This document shows, piece by piece, positions 1-9,669 of a stretch of 12,392 nucleotides of DNA. Under the pieces are notes generated by a model that was given only the letters and a program-made list of their open reading frames with translations, was not told the DNA's origin and searched no databases. A program made the translations under genes and the position numbers. Numbering within the stretch: the first letter of the stretch is position 1; each line of letters begins with the position of its first letter. This stretch comes from a virus (taxonomy: Duplodnaviria; Heunggongvirae; Uroviricota; Caudoviricetes): the IMG/VR virus record IMGVR_UViG_2579778982_000015, one strand, 5' to 3'.

Positions 1-929
1 TAAACCCGCGCGGCCTTCTCCACATCACCAAACGCACTTTTTTCGCCCGGCATCGCCCCCATCAGTTGCGGTGGAACACGGTGCGCAGCCAGCACATCAT
101 CACGGGATGCCGCCTTAACATTCATGAACTCATCTTTTGCGGTGATCTGCTGGAACGGCAAAATTTGCACCCCCTCTTTGCCCCCGTTGGGCGCATGGAT
201 GAGCACGTTTTTAAACGCACCACCACCACGCGCACCCTGTAACGTTTCTTTCAGGGAGTCCATGCTTTCGCGGTTTACCTGCGCTGCACCGATATAGATG
301 ATGCACCCGGCGTGGGATCCATTGTCGTAATACAGTTTTCTGAACATGTCCGCCGAATGAGACAGGCTGGCCGAGAGTAATGCGCCAAGATATTCCGGCA
401 TGCCGTAAATTTCCTGGTTAATGTCCGGATTCATCAGGTGGCACACTTTGCCAGGGCGAAACTGAAACGCATCCTTGCCATCCTGAACATACCACCATGA
501 TTCAAGATCGCTTCCGCGTCGCATGTATTTCGCCAGGGCGTGCCGTAATTTAAGCGGTTCGCCGAGCATATTGCTTCGAAGCTCAAGAAATGCGTTACCG
601 AACACAAACCAGTCCAGCGCCAGCGCCGAGAAATCCTGCCGGGAAAGCAGCGGGTGCGGAATATAGCAACCGAGCAATACATTGCGCTTAAAGTAAAGCG
701 CAGACTGATGCCAGGACGTTTGCCGGGCAGCTCTTGCCAGACCGTACCAGTCCACCGGGGTTTCATACCACCGCCCGTTATCAGCACAGTACATATTGTC
801 CAGCAAATCATGCCCGGTCAGGCGATAAGGACCATCAAATGTGAATGCACTGAGCGACGATTCTTTCCTGAGCGCATCAGCGAGATCAATGCGTGAACTC
901 ATGCGCACTTTTTTATTTTTTCTGCTCAT
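1..929 (-). CDS. Q: Portal protein (P2 gpQ-like), 3'-partial; start ATG at 929..927, C-terminus beyond window start
   Basis: Open minus-strand frame from ATG 929..927 to the window edge (about 309 codons). Translation MSRKNKKVRMSSRIDLADALRKESS ... MPGEKSAFGDVEKAARV reads as a P2-family portal/capsid-vertex protein. Start overlaps the terminase stop (TGATG). Not in the ORF track because it has no in-window stop. Confidence 0.85.
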   Translation of the reverse strand, partial: MSRKNKKVRMSSRIDLADALRKESSLSAFTFDGPYRLTGHDLLDNMYCADNGRWYETPVDWYGLARAARQTSWHQSALYFKRNVLLGCYIPHPLLSRQDFSALALDWFVFGNAFLELRSNMLGEPLKLRHALAKYMRRGSDLESWWYVQDGKDAFQFRPGKVCHLMNPDINQEIYGMPEYLGALLSASLSHSADMFRKLYYDNGSHAGCIIYIGAAQVNRESMDSLKETLQGARGGGAFKNVLIHAPNGGKEGVQILPFQQITAKDEFMNVKAASRDDVLAAHRVPPQLMGAMPGEKSAFGDVEKAARV

Positions 930-2680
930 CAGAACTCCATAACCGTAAAACGCTCGTTTTCCCCTTCGCCGCCAATTGGTTCGTTAATGACAGCAAGCAT
1001 GGTTGCCCACGCAAGGTCGCCGTGGCTGATCCCCCTCGCACGGTCCGTTTCGTAAGTGATAAAACCGCCCGGTGTTTTCACCTTACGCACGGCGTTAAAG
1101 GCCGCGACCAGCTCGCGTTCGGCGCGATCGTATTCCCACCGCCCGGCACGCATTATTTGCAGCATTTTCAGTACCAGCGACCGTTTTGATGACAGCGTGA
1201 AGGTGTACGGAATAGCAGCAGGGAAAAACCGTTTCACTATCTGATAAACAGCCTCCCCGTTCCCGCCCGTCACATCAATGCCGATGTGTTCCACGTTGTA
1301 GCGACACGTGAACTCTTCAATGACTCTGGCCTGTTCTTCAAACTCCAGCCCCTGAACGCGTCGCGTCTCCACCGTTCGAAAACGGCCACCAGGAACAGCC
1401 GGAGGAACCACCACGGACACAGCGCCGCTGTCGCCGTTGCCACTGCTGCCGTTTGCGTCATACCCAATCCATACCGGACGATTCCCCATCGGGCGGGGAG
1501 CAAAAGGTTTCCAGTCTTTCCAGTCGTCGTATCCGTCAACACCGCAGCCAATCAGGATATTCAGGTTAAATGCCGATTCCCCTTCGCGGACAAACTCACA
1601 CATATAGAGATTGCGGAACTCGTCTTCGGTGTTTTCATCACGAATTTCGTCAATATCGGTGTGTTTCCAGCCGTGATTAACCACATCTTCCAGCGTGACA
1701 ATTTGCCGCCACGTCCGGTCAGGGCAGATAAGCCCGTTATGCAGCGTTTTCCAGTCCACAGAAAAACGCTGGCGTTTATGCGTGGCCTTTTTCTCGTTCC
1801 AGCGGTCGCCGTTCCAGTAGGCGTATGCCTCGTGCGTTTCGGTGGATGGCGTGGAGAAGTAGGTGCGCCGCAGTCCGCTGAGGGTTGCCATAGCGCCAGC
1901 CACCTTGCGCAGTTCAGCAAAGCGACTGACCCAGAAAAATTCATCAAAATAAAAATTGCCCGTATAGGACTGTGCCGACGCAGCAGAAGTGCCGAGAAAA
2001 TGCAGCTCTGCACCGTTGGAGAGGATGATTTTATCGCCCCCTTTCAGCTCCACATCAACTTCAGCCGCGGCCTTCTGAATAATGCTTTTGAACTGGAACG
2101 CCTGACGACGCGACGCAGACAAAAAAATCTGGTTACGCTGGTAAGGTTGCGCCACATCGTCACGCAGCGCCATCAGCAGAGCTTCCTGTGCAAAATACCA
2201 GGTCGCCCCAATCTGTCGGGATTTCAGGATCATCCTGTTACGTATCCCGGCTTCCTTGCAAAGTGTCAGGGAGTCAAACCAGCCCCGCTGATGCCACTCC
2301 AGCCTGCTGATGATTTTTTCCCGCAGTGCGGCAATCTGTTCCGGCGTGAAATGATTTTTGAGTTTTTTCGCCCGGCCTTTCTTTCCTGCGGCCATCACAT
2401 CCGGCTGGCCATCATGCAGCTTTTTAAGCTGCCGGGTCAGCAGGTCTATTTCCTTAAAGTCACCGCCTGTTTTATTCTGTTTTTCAGTAAGCTGGATGAG
2501 GCGCGCATCGATGGACTGCGTGACACGCTGCACGGGTGGCGTTTCATCCCACTGGTCGCGTTTTTTCCACGCATAAACCGTGTTCGGGTTTATTCCCATC
2601 AGACGTGATATTTCTGCGGGCGGATAACCCTGCCAGTAAAGTTGCCGCGCACGCTGGCGCACAAAAGCGTCCTGAATCAT
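929..2680 (-). CDS. P: Terminase large (ATPase/nuclease) subunit, P2 gpP-like
   Basis: 583-aa ORF. N-terminal HTH-like GYPPAEISRLMGINPNTVYAWKKR, ATPase region ILKSRQIGATWYFA, C-terminal nuclease-like region. Size and position upstream of Q match P2 gpP (about 590 aa). SD-like GGGGGAG sits upstream of the ATG on the minus strand. Confidence 0.92.
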   Translation of the reverse strand: MIQDAFVRQRARQLYWQGYPPAEISRLMGINPNTVYAWKKRDQWDETPPVQRVTQSIDARLIQLTEKQNKTGGDFKEIDLLTRQLKKLHDGQPDVMAAGKKGRAKKLKNHFTPEQIAALREKIISRLEWHQRGWFDSLTLCKEAGIRNRMILKSRQIGATWYFAQEALLMALRDDVAQPYQRNQIFLSASRRQAFQFKSIIQKAAAEVDVELKGGDKIILSNGAELHFLGTSAASAQSYTGNFYFDEFFWVSRFAELRKVAGAMATLSGLRRTYFSTPSTETHEAYAYWNGDRWNEKKATHKRQRFSVDWKTLHNGLICPDRTWRQIVTLEDVVNHGWKHTDIDEIRDENTEDEFRNLYMCEFVREGESAFNLNILIGCGVDGYDDWKDWKPFAPRPMGNRPVWIGYDANGSSGNGDSGAVSVVVPPAVPGGRFRTVETRRVQGLEFEEQARVIEEFTCRYNVEHIGIDVTGGNGEAVYQIVKRFFPAAIPYTFTLSSKRSLVLKMLQIMRAGRWEYDRAERELVAAFNAVRKVKTPGGFITYETDRARGISHGDLAWATMLAVINEPIGGEGENERFTVMEF

Positions 2681-2834
2681 TGCTCCCCCTGAGTAATTAC
2701 AGGAAGATTACCCGCGCGCGAAACCGTTCTCCTTAACCCCCTGTTCTGGCCGTTTTCTTACAACAAAAGCCCTTTGTATCAGCCTGTTACGCTTTGCCAT
2801 CATGACTGAAGAACCAGTCAGAGGGGCAAAAACT
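2681..2834. promoter_or_regulatory. Divergent late-promoter region between P (leftward) and O (rightward); candidate activator dyad TGT-N15-ACA at 2742..2762
   Basis: 154-bp non-coding gap between divergent operons, which is where P2-family Ogr-dependent late promoters lie. Imperfect dyad TGTtctggccgttttcttACA at 2742..2762; minus-strand -10-like TAATCT at 2706..2711. Spacer is 15 nt, not the canonical 12, so the assignment is tentative. Confidence 0.4.
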
Positions 2835-3671
2835 ATGGCTAATGAAAAAAAGACATCCCGCAAAAAGTTTCGCGTGGCTGTCTCCGGATCAACTGTTGAT
2901 GGCCGCGAAATCAGCCCGGTACATCTGCGTGAAGCCGCCGAGAACTTCAACCCGGATGTTTACGCTGCCCGCGTGAACGTTGAGCACTATCTCTCGCCAT
3001 GCCCGTCAAGCGAATTTTCCGCAATGGGCGATGTCACCGCACTGAGTACGGAAGATATTACGGAAGGCCCGCTGGCCGGACGTACTGCGCTGTATGCAGA
3101 AATCGAACCGACCGAGCGCATGAAGCAGCTTGTCGCTGACGGCAAGAAAATCTATTCCAGTATCGAACTGCACCCGCAGTTCTCCGTTAACGGGCGCGCC
3201 TATCTGGTCGGGCTGGCGATGACCGACACCCCGGCAAGCCTGGGCACTGAGCGCCTGAAATTCACGGCACAGCAACGTCAGGCGGTGATGACGTTCAACA
3301 GTATCCAGGGTGAAGCACCGCTTATCTCCGAAGCCATCGAGTCTGAAATCATCGAAATGGCAGAACAACGCCAGGAAGAAGGCACCCAGTGGTTTAACCG
3401 CGTAATGGGGATTATTGGTCGTGGCCGCAAAGCGGATGACGCCAGTTTTTCCCGTATTCAGGAAGCGGTGGAAGGCGTCGCAACGTCACAGGCCGACATT
3501 ATCGACCGTTTTAATGTGCTGGAAACCCGCCATCAGCAGGACCGCCAGAAAATCACGTCACTGACCACAGAGCTGACAGCACTGAAGGAAAAACTGCGCA
3601 CGCAGGACGGCGATCCGCAGAACCGGTTCACCGCAACGGGCGCAGCCTCCGAGCAGCTGGCTGACTTCTGA
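2835..3671 (+). CDS. O: Capsid scaffolding protein (P2 gpO-like)
   Basis: Translation MANEKKTSRKKFRVAVSGSTVDGREISPVHLREAAENFNP ... has P2 gpO-like N-terminus and length (278 aa from ATG 2835). SD AGAGGGG at 2820..2826. The track ORF begins at 2802, but that ATG has no SD. Double stop TGATAA. Confidence 0.85.
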   Translation: MANEKKTSRKKFRVAVSGSTVDGREISPVHLREAAENFNPDVYAARVNVEHYLSPCPSSEFSAMGDVTALSTEDITEGPLAGRTALYAEIEPTERMKQLVADGKKIYSSIELHPQFSVNGRAYLVGLAMTDTPASLGTERLKFTAQQRQAVMTFNSIQGEAPLISEAIESEIIEMAEQRQEEGTQWFNRVMGIIGRGRKADDASFSRIQEAVEGVATSQADIIDRFNVLETRHQQDRQKITSLTTELTALKEKLRTQDGDPQNRFTATGAASEQLADF

Positions 3672-3694: not shown

Positions 3695-4747
3695 ATGAAT
3701 CTGGTGATGTCAGATATTACCCGCAACAAGCTGGGTTGCTATATGGCGCAGCAGGCGTCGCTTAACAATATCCCGGTTTCCGCACTGGTATCGCGATTTA
3801 CCGTGGAACCCTCGGTACAGCAGCGTTTTGAAAACGCCTCAAAGGAAAGCACCGAATTTACAAAAAGAATTAACGTGATCGGCGTGACCGACCAGAAAGG
3901 CGAAAAAATCCTCCTGGATACCACCGGGCCGATTGCGCGCACGAATACCAGTTATGACGGCACAAAACGCCGTAACCCGAATAATGTGGTTGATCTGAAA
4001 AACCGCAAATACCAGTGCGAACAGGTGAACTACGACACGTTTATTTCATATCCGCAGCTTGATGCCTGGGCGGCACACCCTGATTTTCAGTCCCACATCA
4101 GCGCACAGATTGCCCGACAGGTGGCACTTGACCGCATCATGATCGGTTTCAACGGCACGTCTCACGCGGATGAGTCCAACTTCAGCACCAACAAGTTGCT
4201 TCAGGACGTTAACGTGGGGTGGCTGGAGCACATCAGAACCGACGCCAGCGAACGCGTTATGAATGACGTGACGCTGACCTCCCGTAACATGGACAACACC
4301 GTGGCGCACGCGGGTAAGTATGCGAACGCTGATGCACTGGTACAGGACGCGCGCTCATCCCTGCTGGATGAATGGCACAAGGAAGCTGACGACCTCGTGG
4401 TGATTATGGGGCGCAACCTGTTTAACTCGCTGCGTCTGCCCGTGCTGAACAGCATCAGCGGCCAGAATCCTAATGCGGAATTACTCGCCGGGCAGCTCAT
4501 TCTGTCATCGCGCACCATTGGCGGGCTGGGCGTGTTCCTTGCGCCGTTCTTCCCGGATGCAACGATGCTGATCACCTCGTTCAACAACCTGTCGATTTAC
4601 TGGCAGAAAGGTTCAATGCGTCGTCTGATGAAAGACGAACCGGAATACAACCGCATCGCCACCTACCAGTCCATCAATGACGCTTATGTCGTTGAAGACT
4701 ATGGCAAGTGCGCGATGGTCACTGGCCTGAAGTTCGCCGACAGCTAA
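3695..4747 (+). CDS. N: Major capsid protein (P2 gpN-like)
   Basis: 350-aa ORF with strong SD AAAGGAG 10 nt upstream; size and position match P2 gpN (357 aa); follows the scaffold gene. Confidence 0.92.
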   Translation: MNLVMSDITRNKLGCYMAQQASLNNIPVSALVSRFTVEPSVQQRFENASKESTEFTKRINVIGVTDQKGEKILLDTTGPIARTNTSYDGTKRRNPNNVVDLKNRKYQCEQVNYDTFISYPQLDAWAAHPDFQSHISAQIARQVALDRIMIGFNGTSHADESNFSTNKLLQDVNVGWLEHIRTDASERVMNDVTLTSRNMDNTVAHAGKYANADALVQDARSSLLDEWHKEADDLVVIMGRNLFNSLRLPVLNSISGQNPNAELLAGQLILSSRTIGGLGVFLAPFFPDATMLITSFNNLSIYWQKGSMRRLMKDEPEYNRIATYQSINDAYVVEDYGKCAMVTGLKFADS

Positions 4748-4792: not shown

Positions 4793-5593
4793 ATGATTAC
4801 TCCTGCACAGCAACACTGGCAGAACGTGATGGCACAGCGCGCAGGCCGGGCGAATGAAGGCGTGGACCATGCCGCGCGTACCGCGCATGAAGAGGTGCTG
4901 TATCGTCTGCGTCTGGCACAGGCCCGGCTTAAGGGCGTACAGGCCAGAAGCGCGAAAGCCGCCATCAAAAAAGAGTTGTTGCCGGATTTTTCCGGCTGGA
5001 TTGAGGGAACGCTGGAGGCTGACGGCGGGCAGCAGGATGAAGTGATTGCCACGCTGATGGTGTGGGCGATTGACTGTGGCGATCTTCCGCTTGCGCTGCG
5101 TATCGGCGCGTATGTGGTCCATCACAACCTCATCATGCCGGATAACTTTGGCCGTACTGCTGCCACGGTACTGACCGAAGAAATCTGTAATCCGGTACTG
5201 ACGCAGGCCGGGACGGATGCCGACGCGGATTTGTCCGCCTTTATCGAACCACTGGACACCCTCCGGGAGATTGTCACCGACCAGGACATGCCGGACGAAG
5301 TGCGCGCCAAATTATGCAAAGCGTGCGCCTTTGCCCGCCGTGGCCTGACCGATGCGGACAGCATGGCCTCATCACTGAAGCTGCTGCGCGAAGCGATGCA
5401 CCTGAACCCGAACGCAGGTGTGAAACGCGAGATTGCAACCCTTTCCCGCGCCCTGAAAAAAGCCGATTCCGCAGCCGCACCAGAAGATGCCAGCACACCG
5501 CAGGCGCAGGACGAAAGCAGCAAAAGTAAAAAGACAACGCGGAAGCCTGCAACACGAAAAACCACCGCGACGCAGAAGGCGAAGCGCGGTTAA
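4793..5593 (+). CDS. M: Terminase small (endonuclease) subunit (P2 gpM-like)
   Basis: 266-aa ORF, SD GGAGAG upstream. N-terminal region MITPAQQHWQNVMAQRAG ... KKELLPDFSGWIEG resembles P2 gpM. Ends in a Lys/Thr-rich basic tail. Confidence 0.85.
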   Translation: MITPAQQHWQNVMAQRAGRANEGVDHAARTAHEEVLYRLRLAQARLKGVQARSAKAAIKKELLPDFSGWIEGTLEADGGQQDEVIATLMVWAIDCGDLPLALRIGAYVVHHNLIMPDNFGRTAATVLTEEICNPVLTQAGTDADADLSAFIEPLDTLREIVTDQDMPDEVRAKLCKACAFARRGLTDADSMASSLKLLREAMHLNPNAGVKREIATLSRALKKADSAAAPEDASTPQAQDESSKSKKTTRKPATRKTTATQKAKRG

Positions 5594-5609
5594 CGACTGA
5601 CCCCGTCAG

Positions 5610-5682
5610 CGGGCGGCGTGCGCGGTGTTCCGGTTTGACTCCGTGACCGTTTACACCGAGCACCCACCGCCCGATTTTTTTC
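5610..5682 (+). terminator. Candidate structured element / intrinsic terminator in M-L intergenic region (nested inverted repeats followed by T7 run)
   Basis: Outer stem cgggcgg (5610..5616) with ccgcccg (5667..5673); inner stem cggtgt (5623..5628) with acaccg (5653..5658); TTTTTTT at 5675..5681, just before the SD/ATG of L. Confidence 0.3.
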
Positions 5683-5696
5683 AGGAGTGAACCCCC

Positions 5697-6191
5697 ATGA
5701 GTATGGTTGCCAGAACTGAACCAAGACCCGCAGAGGACGACATCACCGATACCGATGATGGTGATACCCGTATTTCAGCGGGTGCATTCTGGCCGGATAT
5801 TGTGCTGCGTGAGCTGCGTCTGGCGATACGACTGCCGGGCCGTGTGACCACCTCCCGCCTGCTGCATACCGCCACCGGGGCAGTGGCACACGTTACCCGC
5901 GAGCTGGAAGCGTGGCAGCAGGAACAGCAGGCGGCTGGCCATCTGACGCTGGCCGATGTTCCGGCACCCGTAATTAACGGAGAAAGCGTCAATCTCTGGC
6001 ACTGGCGCAATGCTGTTTATACCGCCACACGCGCCCTGATTCTGGAGCGTTACCGCGATGTGGACACAACGGACAAGGGCGACCGCAGGGCGGACGCACT
6101 GGATATACAGACATCGGATTTGTGGCGTGATGTGAGCTGGGCCATCTCTGACATTCTGTGCCGCCCGCGAATCTTTGCGGAGTTGTGCTGA
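5697..6191 (+). CDS. L: Head completion / capsid stabilisation protein (P2 gpL-like)
   Basis: 164-aa ORF, SD CAGGAG upstream; size and position match P2 gpL (169 aa); stop overlaps the X start (TGATG). Confidence 0.85.
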   Translation: MSMVARTEPRPAEDDITDTDDGDTRISAGAFWPDIVLRELRLAIRLPGRVTTSRLLHTATGAVAHVTRELEAWQQEQQAAGHLTLADVPAPVINGESVNLWHWRNAVYTATRALILERYRDVDTTDKGDRRADALDIQTSDLWRDVSWAISDILCRPRIFAELC

Positions 6192-6391
6192 TGAAAGTAA
6201 AGGCACTGGAAGGCGACACCGTGGATTCGCTCTGTTTCCGGTACTACGGCACGACGCAGGGCGTCACCGAAAAGGTGCTGGATGCCAACCCCGGACTCTG
6301 CCAGCAGGTATTTCTGGACGCCGGGCAGGACGTGGAGATGCCAGAGCCGGAGAAGAAGAAACGAGAAATGATTCAGTTGTGGGGGGAGTAG
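6191..6391 (+). CDS. X: Tail protein X (P2 gpX-like, LysM-like)
   Basis: ATG at 6191 overlapping the L stop. 66-aa product MKVKALEGDTVDSLCFRYYGTTQGVTEKVLDANPGL ... LWGE matches the P2 gpX pattern (67 aa). The track's longer frame from 6158 overlaps L and is unlikely. Confidence 0.8.
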   Translation: MKVKALEGDTVDSLCFRYYGTTQGVTEKVLDANPGLCQQVFLDAGQDVEMPEPEKKKREMIQLWGE

Positions 6392-6393
6392 CA

Positions 6394-6717
6394 GTGAGCA
6401 CCATTCAAACAGGGATCACAGAGCAGGTTATTGCGTGGCTCTTTGACCACCTGCCAACGGTGTATGCAGTAGGCGCGGCGGTCAGCATTTCCGCGCTGAT
6501 GAGTCTTTATGACGGACGAACACTGGTTCAGACCGTAACGGGATCGCTGGCGTGCGGCGTTCTTGCCATGGCCGTGGCCGGGTCGTTGCGCTTCTTCGGG
6601 CTTCCTGAAGATGCCGTGACGTTTATCGGCGCATCAATCGGTTTTATGGGGGCAGAGAAAGCACGCGACAAGGTTATTGCGGCCTTTAATCGCAGGGTGA
6701 AGGAGAAGGACGAATGA
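6394..6717 (+). CDS. Putative holin (three predicted TM segments, charged C-terminus)
   Basis: GTG start at 6394 preceded by GGGGGGAG. 107 aa with three hydrophobic stretches (VYAVGAAVSISALM, TVTGSLACGVLAMAVAGSL, VTFIGASIGFMGA) and a basic/acidic tail (EKARDK ... RRVKEKDE). Sits in the P2 gene Y position just before the endolysin. Start codon choice is uncertain. Confidence 0.65.
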   Translation: MSTIQTGITEQVIAWLFDHLPTVYAVGAAVSISALMSLYDGRTLVQTVTGSLACGVLAMAVAGSLRFFGLPEDAVTFIGASIGFMGAEKARDKVIAAFNRRVKEKDE

Positions 6718-7106
6718 GCAACACATTTAAATTCAGTAGCCGGAGCGAAAAGAATTTGCAGGGCGTAAACCCTGATCTGGTGAAAGTGACCCGACGGGCA
6801 CTGGAAATTTCGGAAGTGGATTTTGGTATCACCGAAGGGTTGCGCAGCCGTTACCGCCAGAAGCAACTTGTGGCCACAGGTAAGAGCCAGACCATGAACA
6901 GCCGCCACCTTACGGGGCATGCCGTGGATGTTGTGGCTTATATCGGCAGCCAGGTGTCATGGGAATGGCCGCTGTACGAAAAAATCGCAGCAGCATTCAG
7001 ACAGGCCAGCCGGGAACTGAATATTCCGGTGGAATGGGGCGGCGACTGGAAGACCCTGAAAGACGGACCGCATTTTCAGTTACCACACGGAGCCTATCCG
7101 GCATGA
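6714..7106 (+). CDS. Endolysin, peptidase M15-type L-alanyl-D-glutamate endopeptidase (T5 Lys-like)
   Basis: 130 aa. MSNTFKFSSRSEKNLQGVNPDLVKVTRRALEIS ... SRHLTGHAVDV ... PHFQLPHG closely resembles T5-type M15 endolysins, including an H-x6-D motif and a C-terminal His (Zn ligands). ATGA overlap with the holin stop. Confidence 0.85.
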   Translation: MSNTFKFSSRSEKNLQGVNPDLVKVTRRALEISEVDFGITEGLRSRYRQKQLVATGKSQTMNSRHLTGHAVDVVAYIGSQVSWEWPLYEKIAAAFRQASRELNIPVEWGGDWKTLKDGPHFQLPHGAYPA

Positions 7107-7510
7107 AGCTCTGGCCCACGCTGGGCGTCGCTTTCCTTCTGATTGCCGCATGGGGAACATCCATGCGTCTGTCGTGGTCGCTGGGCCGGGAGAACGCCAG
7201 AAACGAAGCGCAGGCCAGCACCCTGAAAAGTACCGCCGACACCCTGAATATCATCAGCACCGGGGTACAGGATATGCAGCAGGTGCTGGCGCAACTCCGC
7301 GTGGAAAATCAACAACGAAATCAGGACGGAGAGGCAAGACGTGAACAGCTACGCAACGATATTGCAAAAGATGAATGCGCCCACGCTTTGCCTGACGCTC
7401 GTTTTACTGACAGGCTGCGCAGGCACGCAGAACGCGCCACGGCCAGCGCCGTCAGTCCGGCTTATACCGCAGACGCTGACCATACCGGTAACGCCTCCCC
7501 CCTTCCCTGA
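7103..7510 (+). CDS. Rz-like inner-membrane spanin (LysB-like)
   Basis: ATG 7103 overlaps the endolysin stop. N-terminal TM segment LGVAFLLIAAWG followed by a Gln/Arg/Glu-rich coiled-coil-like region; position matches lysB/Rz. Confidence 0.7.
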   Translation: MKLWPTLGVAFLLIAAWGTSMRLSWSLGRENARNEAQASTLKSTADTLNIISTGVQDMQQVLAQLRVENQQRNQDGEARREQLRNDIAKDECAHALPDARFTDRLRRHAERATASAVSPAYTADADHTGNASPLP

Positions 7511-7661
7511 CACTCCCACATGGGGAAATCTCGGTATATGGGGCGACCGCCTTCTGGATGCACTGGAAACCTGTAACGCGGATAAACGGGCCATTGAATT
7601 ACTGGAACAGCGCAGGCTGCAACGACTGAACAACGAGGACAACAACCATGCTGAAAACTGA
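7341..7661 (+). CDS. Rz1-like outer-membrane lipoprotein spanin (LysC-like), starting inside the Rz gene in another frame
   Basis: Lipobox LLTGC after a hydrophobic signal (MNSYATILQKMNAPTLCLTLVLLTGC), then a proline-rich segment (PRPAPSVRLIPQTLTIPVTPPPFPDTP). Overlaps the 3' end of Rz in a different frame and extends beyond it. Start may be ATG 7341 or ATG 7371. Confidence 0.7.
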   Translation: MNSYATILQKMNAPTLCLTLVLLTGCAGTQNAPRPAPSVRLIPQTLTIPVTPPPFPDTPTWGNLGIWGDRLLDALETCNADKRAIELLEQRRLQRLNNEDNNHAEN

Positions 7662-8115
7662 TTCCCTGCGTGAAGCCATGACCCGTTCATGCCGATGGTG
7701 TCAGGCTAACCCGGAAAAATTCACCATTTTCGTGGAGAGCGGCAACATTGAAACGACCGGAGAAACGCCCTCGTTTGTTTACCACTATCAGATGGTGATG
7801 TTTGTCATGGATTACGCCGGGGAGCTGGACGACCTCACGCTGCCGCTGCTGGCGTGGTTATCCGAAAATCAGCCACAGTTGTTGCTCAATCCGGAGCGTA
7901 ATCAGGACATCAAATTTTCCGCCGTTATCAATGACGATGACAGCGCCGATCTCCTGTTTACGCTCCCCCTGCGGGAACGCGTTCGCATCACGCGCAACAG
8001 TCAGGGCACACCGCAGGCAGAACACCTGCCGGAGCCAAAACCCCGCCTGCCATCTTCCGAAGGCGACTGGTCGCATGTATTCCAGGATGTGACGCGGGGT
8101 GAAAGCGATGGATAA
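7648..8115 (+). CDS. R: Tail completion protein R (P2 gpR-like)
   Basis: 155 aa, identical in length to P2 gpR; N-terminus MLKTDSLREAM ... FTIFVESGNI and LPLLAWLSENQP resemble gpR; SD GAGGA upstream. Confidence 0.85.
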   Translation: MLKTDSLREAMTRSCRWCQANPEKFTIFVESGNIETTGETPSFVYHYQMVMFVMDYAGELDDLTLPLLAWLSENQPQLLLNPERNQDIKFSAVINDDDSADLLFTLPLRERVRITRNSQGTPQAEHLPEPKPRLPSSEGDWSHVFQDVTRGESDG

Positions 8116-8743
8116 GGCATTCACCCGCGTGGATGAAACCTTTGAGGCCATCCGCGACAGCCTGAATCAGCAGGCCATCAATAACATCGCCAGAAAGCTG
8201 GCACAGGATTTACGCCGCGCCCAGCAGGCGCGCATCCGGTCACAGAAAGCGCCGGACGGGACCGCATGGACACCACGCAGACGCCGCGTAACCCGGATAC
8301 AGGAGCGCATTCGCTTTATCTGGAATAACGAAGCACGCACGCTGAAAAACTGGCATCACGACACGGGGAAATACGGGCGAACCATCACCGGGTGGGATGA
8401 GGATAAAAACAACATCCGCACGTTTTACCGGGATGACATCGACCGCTTTCTGGAAATACGCACCCGGCGCATCAACCAGGACAGCACAAAGCGCGTCCCC
8501 ATGTTCGTAAAACTGCGCACCGCCCGCCACCTGAAAGCCCGTGCAGATGCTTCCGGTGTGACGGTGGGTTACAGCGGCGTAGCCGCACGTATTGCACGCG
8601 TTCATCAGTACGGTGAGCGCGATCAGGTTGCGCCGGGCATTTTCACCGATTACCCGGTACGTGAGCTGCTGGGTATCAGCCAGGCAGATGAGCGCCTGAT
8701 TTATAACACGGTGCTGGGCCGGATTGCGGAGGCTGTACGGTGA
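8108..8743 (+). CDS. S: Tail completion / virion morphogenesis protein S-like (P2 gpS / Mu G family), apparently extended
   Basis: ATG 8108 overlaps the R stop; the track's GTG 8099 is an alternative start. C-terminal region ARIARVHQYGERDQVAPG ... RELLGISQADERL resembles the gpS family. At 211 aa it is longer than my recollection of P2 gpS (about 150 aa). Confidence 0.7.
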   Translation: MDKAFTRVDETFEAIRDSLNQQAINNIARKLAQDLRRAQQARIRSQKAPDGTAWTPRRRRVTRIQERIRFIWNNEARTLKNWHHDTGKYGRTITGWDEDKNNIRTFYRDDIDRFLEIRTRRINQDSTKRVPMFVKLRTARHLKARADASGVTVGYSGVAARIARVHQYGERDQVAPGIFTDYPVRELLGISQADERLIYNTVLGRIAEAVR

Positions 8744-9186
8744 GCGCAGAACTCATGCGACTGCTGAGCAACATCATCCGCACCGGGATCATCTCTGAAG
8801 TTGATGAGAAGTCCTGGCGCGTGCGCGTTCGCAGCGGCGAACTGGAAACAGGCTGGTTACGCTGGAACACCACGCGCGCAGGAACCTTCAACGTGTGGCT
8901 GCCGCCATCACCCGGCGAACAGGTGGTAATTGCCTGCATTGGCGGCAACCCGGAAACCGCCATGATAATTGGCAGCCTGTGGAGTGATGCCAATCCGGCA
9001 CCCGGCAAAAGCCTGAAAGAAATCGTGATCAGCGCGCCGGACGGCGCGGTGTTCCGCTACGACGCGGACGCAGGCGCACTGAGCGCCAGCGGCATGAAAA
9101 CAGCCACCCTACAGGCATCCGTCAGCGTGAAACTGGATACGCCCGTCGTGGAATGCACAAACCTTCTGAAAACAGCCGACGATTGA
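8740..9186 (+). CDS. V: Baseplate assembly/spike protein V, N-terminal part (P2 gpV-like), truncated by frameshift
   Basis: GTG start overlaps the S stop (GTGA). Product contains MRLLSNIIRTGIISEVD ... GEQVVIACIGGNPETAMIIGSLWSDANPAP ... LDTPVVECTN, typical of gpV. Ends prematurely at TGA 9184..9186; the rest of gpV continues in the +1 frame. Confidence 0.8.
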   Translation: MSAELMRLLSNIIRTGIISEVDEKSWRVRVRSGELETGWLRWNTTRAGTFNVWLPPSPGEQVVIACIGGNPETAMIIGSLWSDANPAPGKSLKEIVISAPDGAVFRYDADAGALSASGMKTATLQASVSVKLDTPVVECTNLLKTADD

Positions 9187-9205
9187 CGTCACAAAAGGGG
9201 GAAAG

Positions 9206-9322
9206 ATGAGCGGCAATATCACGCACAGCGGCGGCGATTTCACCTCAAACGGCATCACAGTGCATACGCATAAACACGGTGGCGTGAAAGGCGGCAGCGA
9301 TTCGACAGGAGGCCCGCAGTGA
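9206..9322 (+). pseudogene. V: C-terminal tip segment of baseplate spike V in +1 frame (38-aa ORF MSGNITHSGGDFTSNGITVHTHKHGGVKGGSDSTGGPQ)
   Basis: Matches the conserved C-terminal apex of P2 gpV (recalled as ... KGGTMRGNIEHTGG ... HTHKH ...). Preceded by AAAGGGGGAAAG, which is also coding sequence in this frame (VTKGGK). Stop overlaps the GTG start of W. Separated from the main V ORF by an apparent single-nucleotide insertion near 9184. Confidence 0.6.
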
Positions 9323-9669
9323 CAACCCGCTACACAGGAATGAACCCGGACGGAACGGGAAACCTGAACGATATGGAGCACCTGAAACAGTCAGTCAGGG
9401 ACATCCTGACCACCCCGCTGGCAAGCCGGGTTATGCGACGGGAATATGGCAGCCTTGTGCCTGATTTGATTGACGAACCCATGAATAACACCACGCGTCT
9501 GCAATGCATGAGTGCTGCCGTGATTGCGCTGACACGATGGGAACCCCGCATTGCCCTGGACGCCATCGACGTTGTCTGGAAAGCAGGAGGCCGCGCAGGG
9601 GTGACGCTGTCGGGCACTGTCATGCAGACCATGCAGAATGTTGAATTAACCATCACGCTGAGAGAGTAA
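9319..9669 (+). CDS. W: Baseplate wedge protein W (P2 gpW / T4 gp25-like)
   Basis: 116 aa from GTG 9319; N-terminus MTTRYTGMNPDG mirrors P2 gpW MTARYLGMN; also SRVMRREYGSL and KWEPR-like motifs. P2 gpW is 115 aa. Confidence 0.88.
   Translation: MTTRYTGMNPDGTGNLNDMEHLKQSVRDILTTPLASRVMRREYGSLVPDLIDEPMNNTTRLQCMSAAVIALTRWEPRIALDAIDVVWKAGGRAGVTLSGTVMQTMQNVELTITLRE

Follow-up and report, generated by a model that had tools for sequence, protein, structure and literature searches.

The lysis cassette of a P88-like prophage of Escherichia coli: a holin, an M15 zinc peptidase endolysin and two spanins

The window analysed here, a stretch of 12,392 nucleotides (nt) from the virus record IMGVR_UViG_2579778982_000015 (Caudoviricetes), carries four tightly packed lysis genes at positions 6394-7661, between the tail genes X (5') and R (3'). 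The limits given for this locus in an earlier note, made from the letters of the DNA, bracket the four genes exactly. All four are read on the plus strand. They encode a holin of 107 amino acids (aa) (6394-6717; PF05106, phrog_126), an endolysin of 130 aa running from ATG to TGA (6714-7106; PF13539, phrog_465), an Rz-like inner-membrane spanin (i-spanin) of 135 aa with an ATG start (7103-7510; phrog_214) and an Rz1/LysC-like outer-membrane spanin (o-spanin) lipoprotein of 96 aa, encoded in the +1 frame relative to Rz (7371-7661; PF23793 LysC). This combination of a holin, an M15 zinc peptidase endolysin and two spanins is the standard lysis module of P88-type prophages. The upstream edge of the slot is formed by the gpX tail protein (6191-6391, plus strand; PF05489 Phage_tail_X, E 1.6e-20), with 48% identity to gpX of phage P2, and the downstream edge by the tail completion protein gpR (7648-8115, plus strand; PF06891 P2_Phage_GpR, 6.8e-40), with 39% identity to P2 gpR. 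Packing is dense throughout: start and stop codons overlap as ATGA at the holin-endolysin junction and again at the endolysin-Rz junction, Rz and Rz1 share 140 nt, Rz1 and gpR share 14 nt, and the remaining neighbours, X and the holin gene, are 2 nt apart. Because the genes from X to R abut or overlap, a fifth gene, such as lysA, would not fit.

The endolysin matches the PF13539 profile (Peptidase_M15_4; E 8e-12, 46 bits for a cut-off of 25) and the phrog_465 endolysin family (5e-77). Its matches in the PDB comprise 23ri (2e-48), Serratia ChiX (5opz, 2.5e-48) and an L-alanyl-D-glutamate endopeptidase (8q2g, 3e-46), with the endolysin of phage T5 (2mxz/8p3a) far behind (9e-23). The protein contains the motif H65-LTGHAV-D72 and a C-terminal H120, and in a seven-sequence alignment R44, H65, D72, W112, D117 and H120 are invariant. 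Residues H65, D72 and H120 align with the zinc ligands H68, D75 and H123 of ChiX, R44 and D117 correspond to ChiX R47 and D120, and W112 is the equivalent of EndoRB49 Trp109, a conserved active-site tryptophan. The proposal of the earlier note that HLTGHAVD and a C-terminal histidine mark an M15-type endopeptidase is thus borne out by a profile match above cut-off, the phrog_465 assignment and the invariant catalytic residues. ChiX has been shown biochemically to be an L-Ala-D-Glu endopeptidase, with structural and mutagenesis data that include an inactive D120A variant (PMC5778951); W109 of EndoRB49 is a conserved tryptophan near the active site (PMC10487532), and biochemical characterisation covers both ChiX and the RB49-type enzyme (PMC5778951, PMC10487532, PMC8140593). 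The 6714-7106 product is most probably a single-domain Zn2+ L-alanyl-D-glutamate endopeptidase of MEROPS family M15C with the LAS fold, its bond specificity being predicted from 62% identity to characterised enzymes.

Within the M15C family, the window enzyme is not particularly close to that of T5. Identity amounts to 62% with ChiX, 62% with the RB49-type enzyme (8q2g) and ~40% with T5-type enzymes. EndoT5 has a mobile loop, with residues W114, G118 and H121, at which the binding of Ca2+ activates the enzyme; EndoRB49 is not regulated in this way (PMC10487532). In T5-type enzymes ~15 residues lie between the conserved tryptophan and the catalytic aspartate (W114 to D130); in the window endolysin only 4 residues separate W112 from D117, a spacing as short as in RB49 and ChiX, which implies that the Ca2+-binding regulatory loop of T5 is absent. 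MAFFT and HMMER misalign the C-terminus of T5-type sequences by placing the loop histidine on the catalytic histidine, and this region was read by the residue numbering of PMC10487532. The label 'T5-like', as first applied to this protein, is therefore right at the level of the M15C family and misleading below it, given the lower identity to T5-type enzymes and the missing Ca2+ loop. Other relatives occur in phages with a gene context different from that of the window: the endolysin is 77% identical to that of Salmonella phage SP069 (Nonanavirus) and 62% identical to that of Yersinia phage vB_YenM_646, which its record lists under unclassified Caudoviricetes. Evidently, the endolysin gene travels from one phage group to another, unrelated one without its holin. 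In SP069, a 9NA-like siphovirus, the M15C endolysin (region 2250-3516) stands after an 84-aa protein without a Pfam match, presumably a different holin, and is followed by unrelated small genes.

The N-terminus of the endolysin, MSNTFKFSSRSEKN, is polar, with a maximum 17-residue Kyte-Doolittle mean of 0.83, and a hydropathy scan found no hydrophobic or signal-anchor segment there. With such an N-terminus, the enzyme should be soluble and cytoplasmic, and should depend on the holin for access to the wall. Many phages of enterobacteria use another route, in which a pinholin is combined with a signal-arrest-release (SAR) endolysin, exported by Sec and activated when the membrane is depolarised. 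Such a route is scarcely conceivable for this cassette: nothing specific supports it, the endolysin has no segment by which it could be exported and anchored, and the holin belongs to the large-hole family of lambda S, not to the S21 pinholin family.

Assignment of the holin relies on several matches. The gene starts at GTG 6394, with a Shine-Dalgarno sequence (GGGGGAG) 7 nt upstream. Its product matches PF05106 (Phage_holin_3_1, the lambda S family; E 6e-20, 72 bits for a cut-off of 23.8) over the full length of the profile, holin residues 7-101 covering profile positions 5-99 of 99, and also matches the phrog_126 holin/anti-holin family (9e-36). In BLASTP it shows 25% identity to lambda S over 60 aa (E 7e-6). 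A crude Kyte-Doolittle scan gives hydrophobic stretches at residues 20-39 and 43-71 and a weaker one at ~73-86, a pattern like that of lambda S. A dual-start motif was not found, the N-terminus MSTIQTG having neither a second methionine nor a basic residue. An in-frame GTG at 6379, five codons upstream, was considered as the start of a dual-start antiholin and rejected, since no Shine-Dalgarno sequence precedes it and the residues gained would all be uncharged. The other open reading frames (ORFs) listed within 6394-7661 (e.g. minus-strand 6528-6920 and plus-strand 7150-7344) overlay the four genes in another frame or on the other strand. By inspection, with no scan or search made, none of them reads as a membrane protein; as antiholin candidates they were set aside as shadow ORFs that overlap the four genes. 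The holin appears to be a class I type member of the lambda S family with a single GTG start, and by analogy with its homologues it would form large holes.

Two genes downstream of the endolysin have the features of a two-component spanin. The Rz product matches the Rz-like spanins of phrog_214 (1.9e-41), with a match to DUF2570 that stays under the cut-off of that family (21.3 versus 26.6 bits), and a hydropathy scan shows residues 1-23 to be hydrophobic, as an N-terminal transmembrane helix. The o-spanin lies in a listed ORF at 7341-7661, whose likely start is ATG 7371; from there it reads MNAPTLCLTLVLLTG|C, with an LLTG|C lipobox at Cys16. It matches PF23793, 'Rz1-like lysis system protein LysC' (1.2e-13), as well as phrog_3001 and phrog_456. 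Rz1 overlaps the 3' end of Rz and extends beyond it, the 'overlapped' architecture also found in lysB/lysC of P2. Transmembrane helix, lipobox and overlapping frames all argue for a spanin pair, whose action would be that of the families to which the proteins belong. RefSeq names the o-spanin gene in E. coli genomes 'lysC: Rz1-like lysis system protein LysC'. The RefSeq record of phage P88 (NC_026014) leaves the gene unannotated, its positions 18978-19116 corresponding to 7510-7648 of the window; the same record calls gpX 'baseplate hub' and gpO 'head maturation protease', and the i-spanin appears only as 'DUF2570 domain-containing protein'. These labels and omissions are annotation gaps, not biology.

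The cassette is neither new nor rare. The stretch 5600-8200 of the window is covered completely by 12 Escherichia phage records, with which it shares 97.7-98.4% DNA identity. Among them are PhiR44_2, P884B11, 500465-2, Chuche, P88, 520873 and 503458, several of which are classified as Xuanwuvirus (Peduoviridae). Where these records are annotated, the genes are given as holin, endolysin (Peptidase M15) and DUF2570. Placement in the genus comes from a search over this 2.6-kb stretch; around gpV (8730-9330), the alignment to P88 likewise shows few mismatches. The window represents a P88-like (Xuanwuvirus, Peduoviridae) temperate phage or prophage of E. coli. At the protein level, the holin is 97-98% identical to those of Xuanwuvirus phages and the endolysin 100% identical to that of P88. 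Since P88 is mitomycin-inducible and plaque-forming (PMC5285337) and has the identical endolysin, the cassette works in at least one phage of the lineage. Of 5,426 complete E. coli genomes, 1,100 have the 1,268-bp cassette, 1,008 of these at a coverage of at least 80%. There, RefSeq/PGAP names its products 'phage holin family protein', 'M15 family metallopeptidase', 'DUF2570 domain-containing protein' and LysC. The cassette is thus already known, annotated and extremely common (about one-fifth of complete E. coli genomes), and it is the majority form for its genus.

Collectively, these data point with high confidence to an intact cassette of a P88-like prophage, sited in the X-R slot of a P2-type late operon and most likely acting by the canonical three-step lysis of Gram-negative hosts. 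In the first step, the single-start holin of the lambda S family would accumulate in the inner membrane until, at its own programmed time, it opens large, non-specific holes. In the second, the small soluble Zn2+ metallopeptidase would pass from the cytoplasm through these holes to the murein. In the third, the spanin formed by the Rz-like inner-membrane protein and the Rz1/LysC-like outer-membrane lipoprotein would fuse the inner and outer membranes. Three points weigh against this account. The third transmembrane segment of the holin is weak in the crude hydropathy scan, although lambda S behaves alike. No antiholin was identified in the cassette, either as a dual-start motif or as a separate membrane-protein gene. 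Finally, the prophage may be defective, and the cassette might then never release virions in this strain.

This last point stems from gpV, the baseplate spike gene (8740-9316), in which, compared with P88 and Citrobacter phage Shae_phiSM, one extra nucleotide is inserted near 9176. Owing to this +1 frameshift, the gpV ORF ends at 9186 and encodes 148 aa, versus 193 aa in P88, with the remainder in another frame (9179-9316). The insertion looks private to the window: of 997 E. coli genomes with the region, none reaches 99% identity over 9080-9280, and the best eight matches listed align the 201-nt gpV query to 200 nt. It may reflect a sequencing error or an inactivated prophage. The four genes could accordingly be an intact remnant in a decaying, non-productive prophage, the induction of which could kill the cell without yielding infectious particles. 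The truncated gpV and its apparent privacy speak for this possibility, which is unlikely on the whole; yet the single extra base may be an error of sequencing or assembly, the other late genes of the window, the four lysis genes among them, are intact, and the question bears on the state of the prophage rather than on the identity of the cassette.

The intact P88-type cassette lies within a complete set of late genes. Upstream of it are the genes for the large terminase (929-2680, minus strand) and, on the plus strand, for the scaffold gpO (2802-3671), the major capsid protein gpN (3695-4747), the small terminase gpM (4793-5593) and the head completion protein gpL (5697-6191). Downstream of gpR follow, also on the plus strand, the tail completion protein gpS (8099-8743) and, after it, the baseplate genes V, W, J and I. 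With L and X before the cassette and R, S, V, W, J and I after it, the late genes are ordered as in P2, so that the late operon is syntenic with that of P2, as had been assumed. The gpS gene (8099-8743) overlaps gpV, which starts at 8740, by 4 nt. This overlap implies that the intergenic block between S and V of P2, with the terminator of the O operon, the divergent orf30, the activator site and the V promoter, is absent, and the O and V late operons appear to be fused in the lineage of the window. The gpS of the window is also longer than that of P2 (214 versus 150 aa), with only 24% identity.

Synteny with P2 does not extend to the sequences of the lysis genes. The P2 record (AF063097) gives the order Y-K-lysA-lysB-lysC between X and R, in agreement with the earlier note. 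Likewise, P2 gpK proves to be a lysozyme-type protein, a lambda-R-type 'lysozyme' by its PDB match (3d3d/1am7, E 4e-44), and not itself an M15 enzyme; the M15 product of the window has no similarity to it. Pfam gives no match for P2 gpK or LysA, gpK being identified through the PDB and both proteins through PHROGs. With P2 LysA as the query, tblastn aligned nothing in the window, even with the E-value limit set at 10; together with the lack of space between the genes, this confirms that no lysA-like gene is present. The holin of the window shows no BLAST match to P2 gpY, the family of which is PF04550/phrog_175. No BLAST match links the Rz of the window to LysB (phrog_89) either, their only tie being cross-hits at weak profile level between phrog_214 and phrog_89 (1e-4 and 2e-4). 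Rz1 and P2 LysC share 32% identity (E 1e-4) and both match PF23793. Among the lysis proteins of P2, only LysC is thus recognisably related to its counterpart in the window.

The earlier note had read the locus as a P2 cassette in which an endolysin of the T5 type replaces gpK and lysA is missing. In its narrow form, this would be a recent mosaic event in a P2 genome, with only gpK replaced (and lysA deleted) by a T5-derived endolysin while the P2 holin was kept. The order X-holin-endolysin-Rz/Rz1-R is indeed that of P2 apart from lysA, and the endolysin and the T5 enzyme (2mxz, E 9e-23) do both belong to M15C. Nevertheless, such an event is very improbable. The holin is not of the Y family, and the identity of the endolysin to T5-type enzymes (~40%) is well below the 62-77% found with ChiX, the RB49-type enzyme and Nonanavirus, with no T5 Ca2+ loop. 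Moreover, the structural proteins of the window, those flanking the cassette included, are 24-61% identical to those of P2, while its DNA is ~98% identical to Xuanwuvirus phages, all of which have the cassette. With structural proteins only 24-61% identical, the comparison with P2 is one between genera and does not reveal a recent replacement in a P2 backbone. Family membership of the holin and conservation of the cassette throughout the genus refute the narrow form. The locus is therefore not a variant of the P2 genome but the norm of its own genus, and module exchange, although real at the X-R slot, is not restricted to the endolysin when P2 is the reference, given the different holin family and the lack of a BLAST match between Rz and LysB. 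The whole holin/endolysin/antiholin part is non-orthologous to that of P2, an old difference at the level of genera.

Absence of LysA is likewise unremarkable. In a tblastn search across the collection, P2 LysA matches 79 of 50,697 phage records, none of them named Xuanwuvirus. Seventy-five of the 79 matches are at least 90% identical, hence close relatives of P2, and four are below 60%, the two listed being Enterobacter phage ENT4 and Erwinia phage EtG at ~40%. LysA is thus largely confined to the genus of P2 itself, and its absence is the normal state elsewhere.

A recent exchange is nonetheless visible within the genus. Citrobacter phage Shae_phiSM has the same late operon with the same holin and Rz/Rz1 genes (~97% DNA identity), but in its endolysin slot a 181-aa muramidase with GH108 and PG_binding_3 domains takes the place of the M15 gene. 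In a three-way DNA alignment, the window, P88 and Shae_phiSM are near-identical up to ~6694 and again from ~7124, and unalignable between these points. The exchanged segment by which the M15 and GH108 versions differ (6695-7123, plus strand) runs from the seventh-last codon of the holin gene through the endolysin gene to the seventh codon of Rz; Shae_phiSM has a 54-nt spacer between holin and endolysin where the window has the ATGA overlap. The GH108 version occurs in 32 of the 5,426 complete E. coli genomes (e.g. IHE3034), versus ~1,008 with the M15 version. This alternation of M15 and GH108 within the genus is the sole recent exchange directly visible. It is tempting to propose that the conserved flanks (the 3' end of the holin gene to ~6694 and Rz from ~7124) serve as homologous 'linker' sites by which M15C and GH108 endolysins are swapped while one single-start, antiholin-less holin is kept. 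The idea is speculative and rather more likely wrong than right by a wide measure; if true, an abundant prophage family would offer a natural test bed for holin-endolysin pairing that is indifferent to the fold of the enzyme, and for lysis timing free of an antiholin.

More broadly, the X-R slot is a hotspot for lysis-gene shuffling in general. The structural genes of P2-like phages stay syntenic even though their holins, endolysins and antiholins do not resemble those of P2 (Lynch et al. 2010, PMC3091744). In Salmonella phage SEN5 (Senquatrovirus, Peduoviridae), a holin of the lambda S family, 56% identical to that of the window, is paired with a GH24 lysozyme and a DUF2514 spanin. In the Burkholderia phages KS5, KS14 and KL3, the holin is a DUF754 protein accompanied by a separate antiholin, and the endolysin is of the PG_binding_1 type (PMC3091744). 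In SEN5 as in KS5, KS14 and KL3, the X-R slot thus houses a holin, an endolysin and spanins dissimilar to those of P2, with the structural genes still syntenic.

The significance of the locus follows from its place in this landscape. It is the usual lysis module of an E. coli prophage lineage that is very common, each of its proteins has well-studied relatives, and it matters little beyond correct annotation. For that purpose, the P2 prototype (gpY, gpK and LysA) is a poor template for other Peduoviridae, because the X-R slot is a known exchange hotspot, and some phage records, that of P88 for example, omit the o-spanin gene (7371-7661). The M15/GH108 alternative in a ~97% identical frame provides a clean natural example of the swapping of endolysin cassettes.

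Outside phages, a parallel in composition is found in Serratia, where the chiWXYZ genes (type 10 secretion) encode a single-start holin of the holin-3 family, an M15 L-Ala-D-Glu endopeptidase and two spanins (PMC4259817). The window shares this four-part composition and keeps all zinc-binding and catalytic residues of ChiX in its endolysin; ChiW, like the window holin, has a single start (PMC4259817). The chiWXYZ genes are chromosomal, stand in a chitinase locus without adjacent phage genes and serve secretion (PMC4259817); the chiB flank is seen beside them in the Serratia locus. By their composition, and by the 62% identity between the endolysin and ChiX, one might suppose that the window cassette too serves the release of proteins, either without lysis or through lysis of a subpopulation. 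Such a role is highly unlikely. The cassette is set within a complete P2-type late operon of an inducible, plaque-forming lineage, whereas chiWXYZ has no phage genes beside it, and the endolysin alone is close to the Serratia system. Indeed, the holin shares 26% identity with ChiW (E 6e-6), no closer than with lambda S, the i-spanins match at E 0.004 and the o-spanins not significantly. Direct ancestry between the two cassettes was rejected on these grounds, the endolysin being close, the holin distant and the spanins barely alignable. As a separate observation on ChiX, the contig JAWQUI010000017.1, labelled Pseudomonas lundensis, encodes a homologue that shares 87% identity with Serratia ChiX, as much as the Serratia proteamaculans protein does; the assembly may be mislabelled or contaminated, or the gene may have been transferred horizontally.

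EndoRB49, EndoRB43 and EndoT5 are, like the window enzyme, single-domain globular zinc peptidases of ~130 aa, with the pattern H-x6-D...D-x2-H and a tryptophan near the active site. P2, with Y-K-lysA-lysB-lysC, occupies the same position between X and R and has overlapped spanin genes of the Rz/Rz1 type, with an o-spanin gene that extends into gene R. It differs in its endolysin, a lambda-R-type glycosidase/transglycosylase, where the window has an M15C peptidase of another fold that would cleave another bond, and in LysA, a multi-transmembrane antiholin that the cassette of the window does not have. The closest counterpart is P88 itself (NC_026014, gp30-gp32), along with the other Xuanwuvirus phages: genes, order and overlaps are the same, and there is essentially no difference in the cassette.

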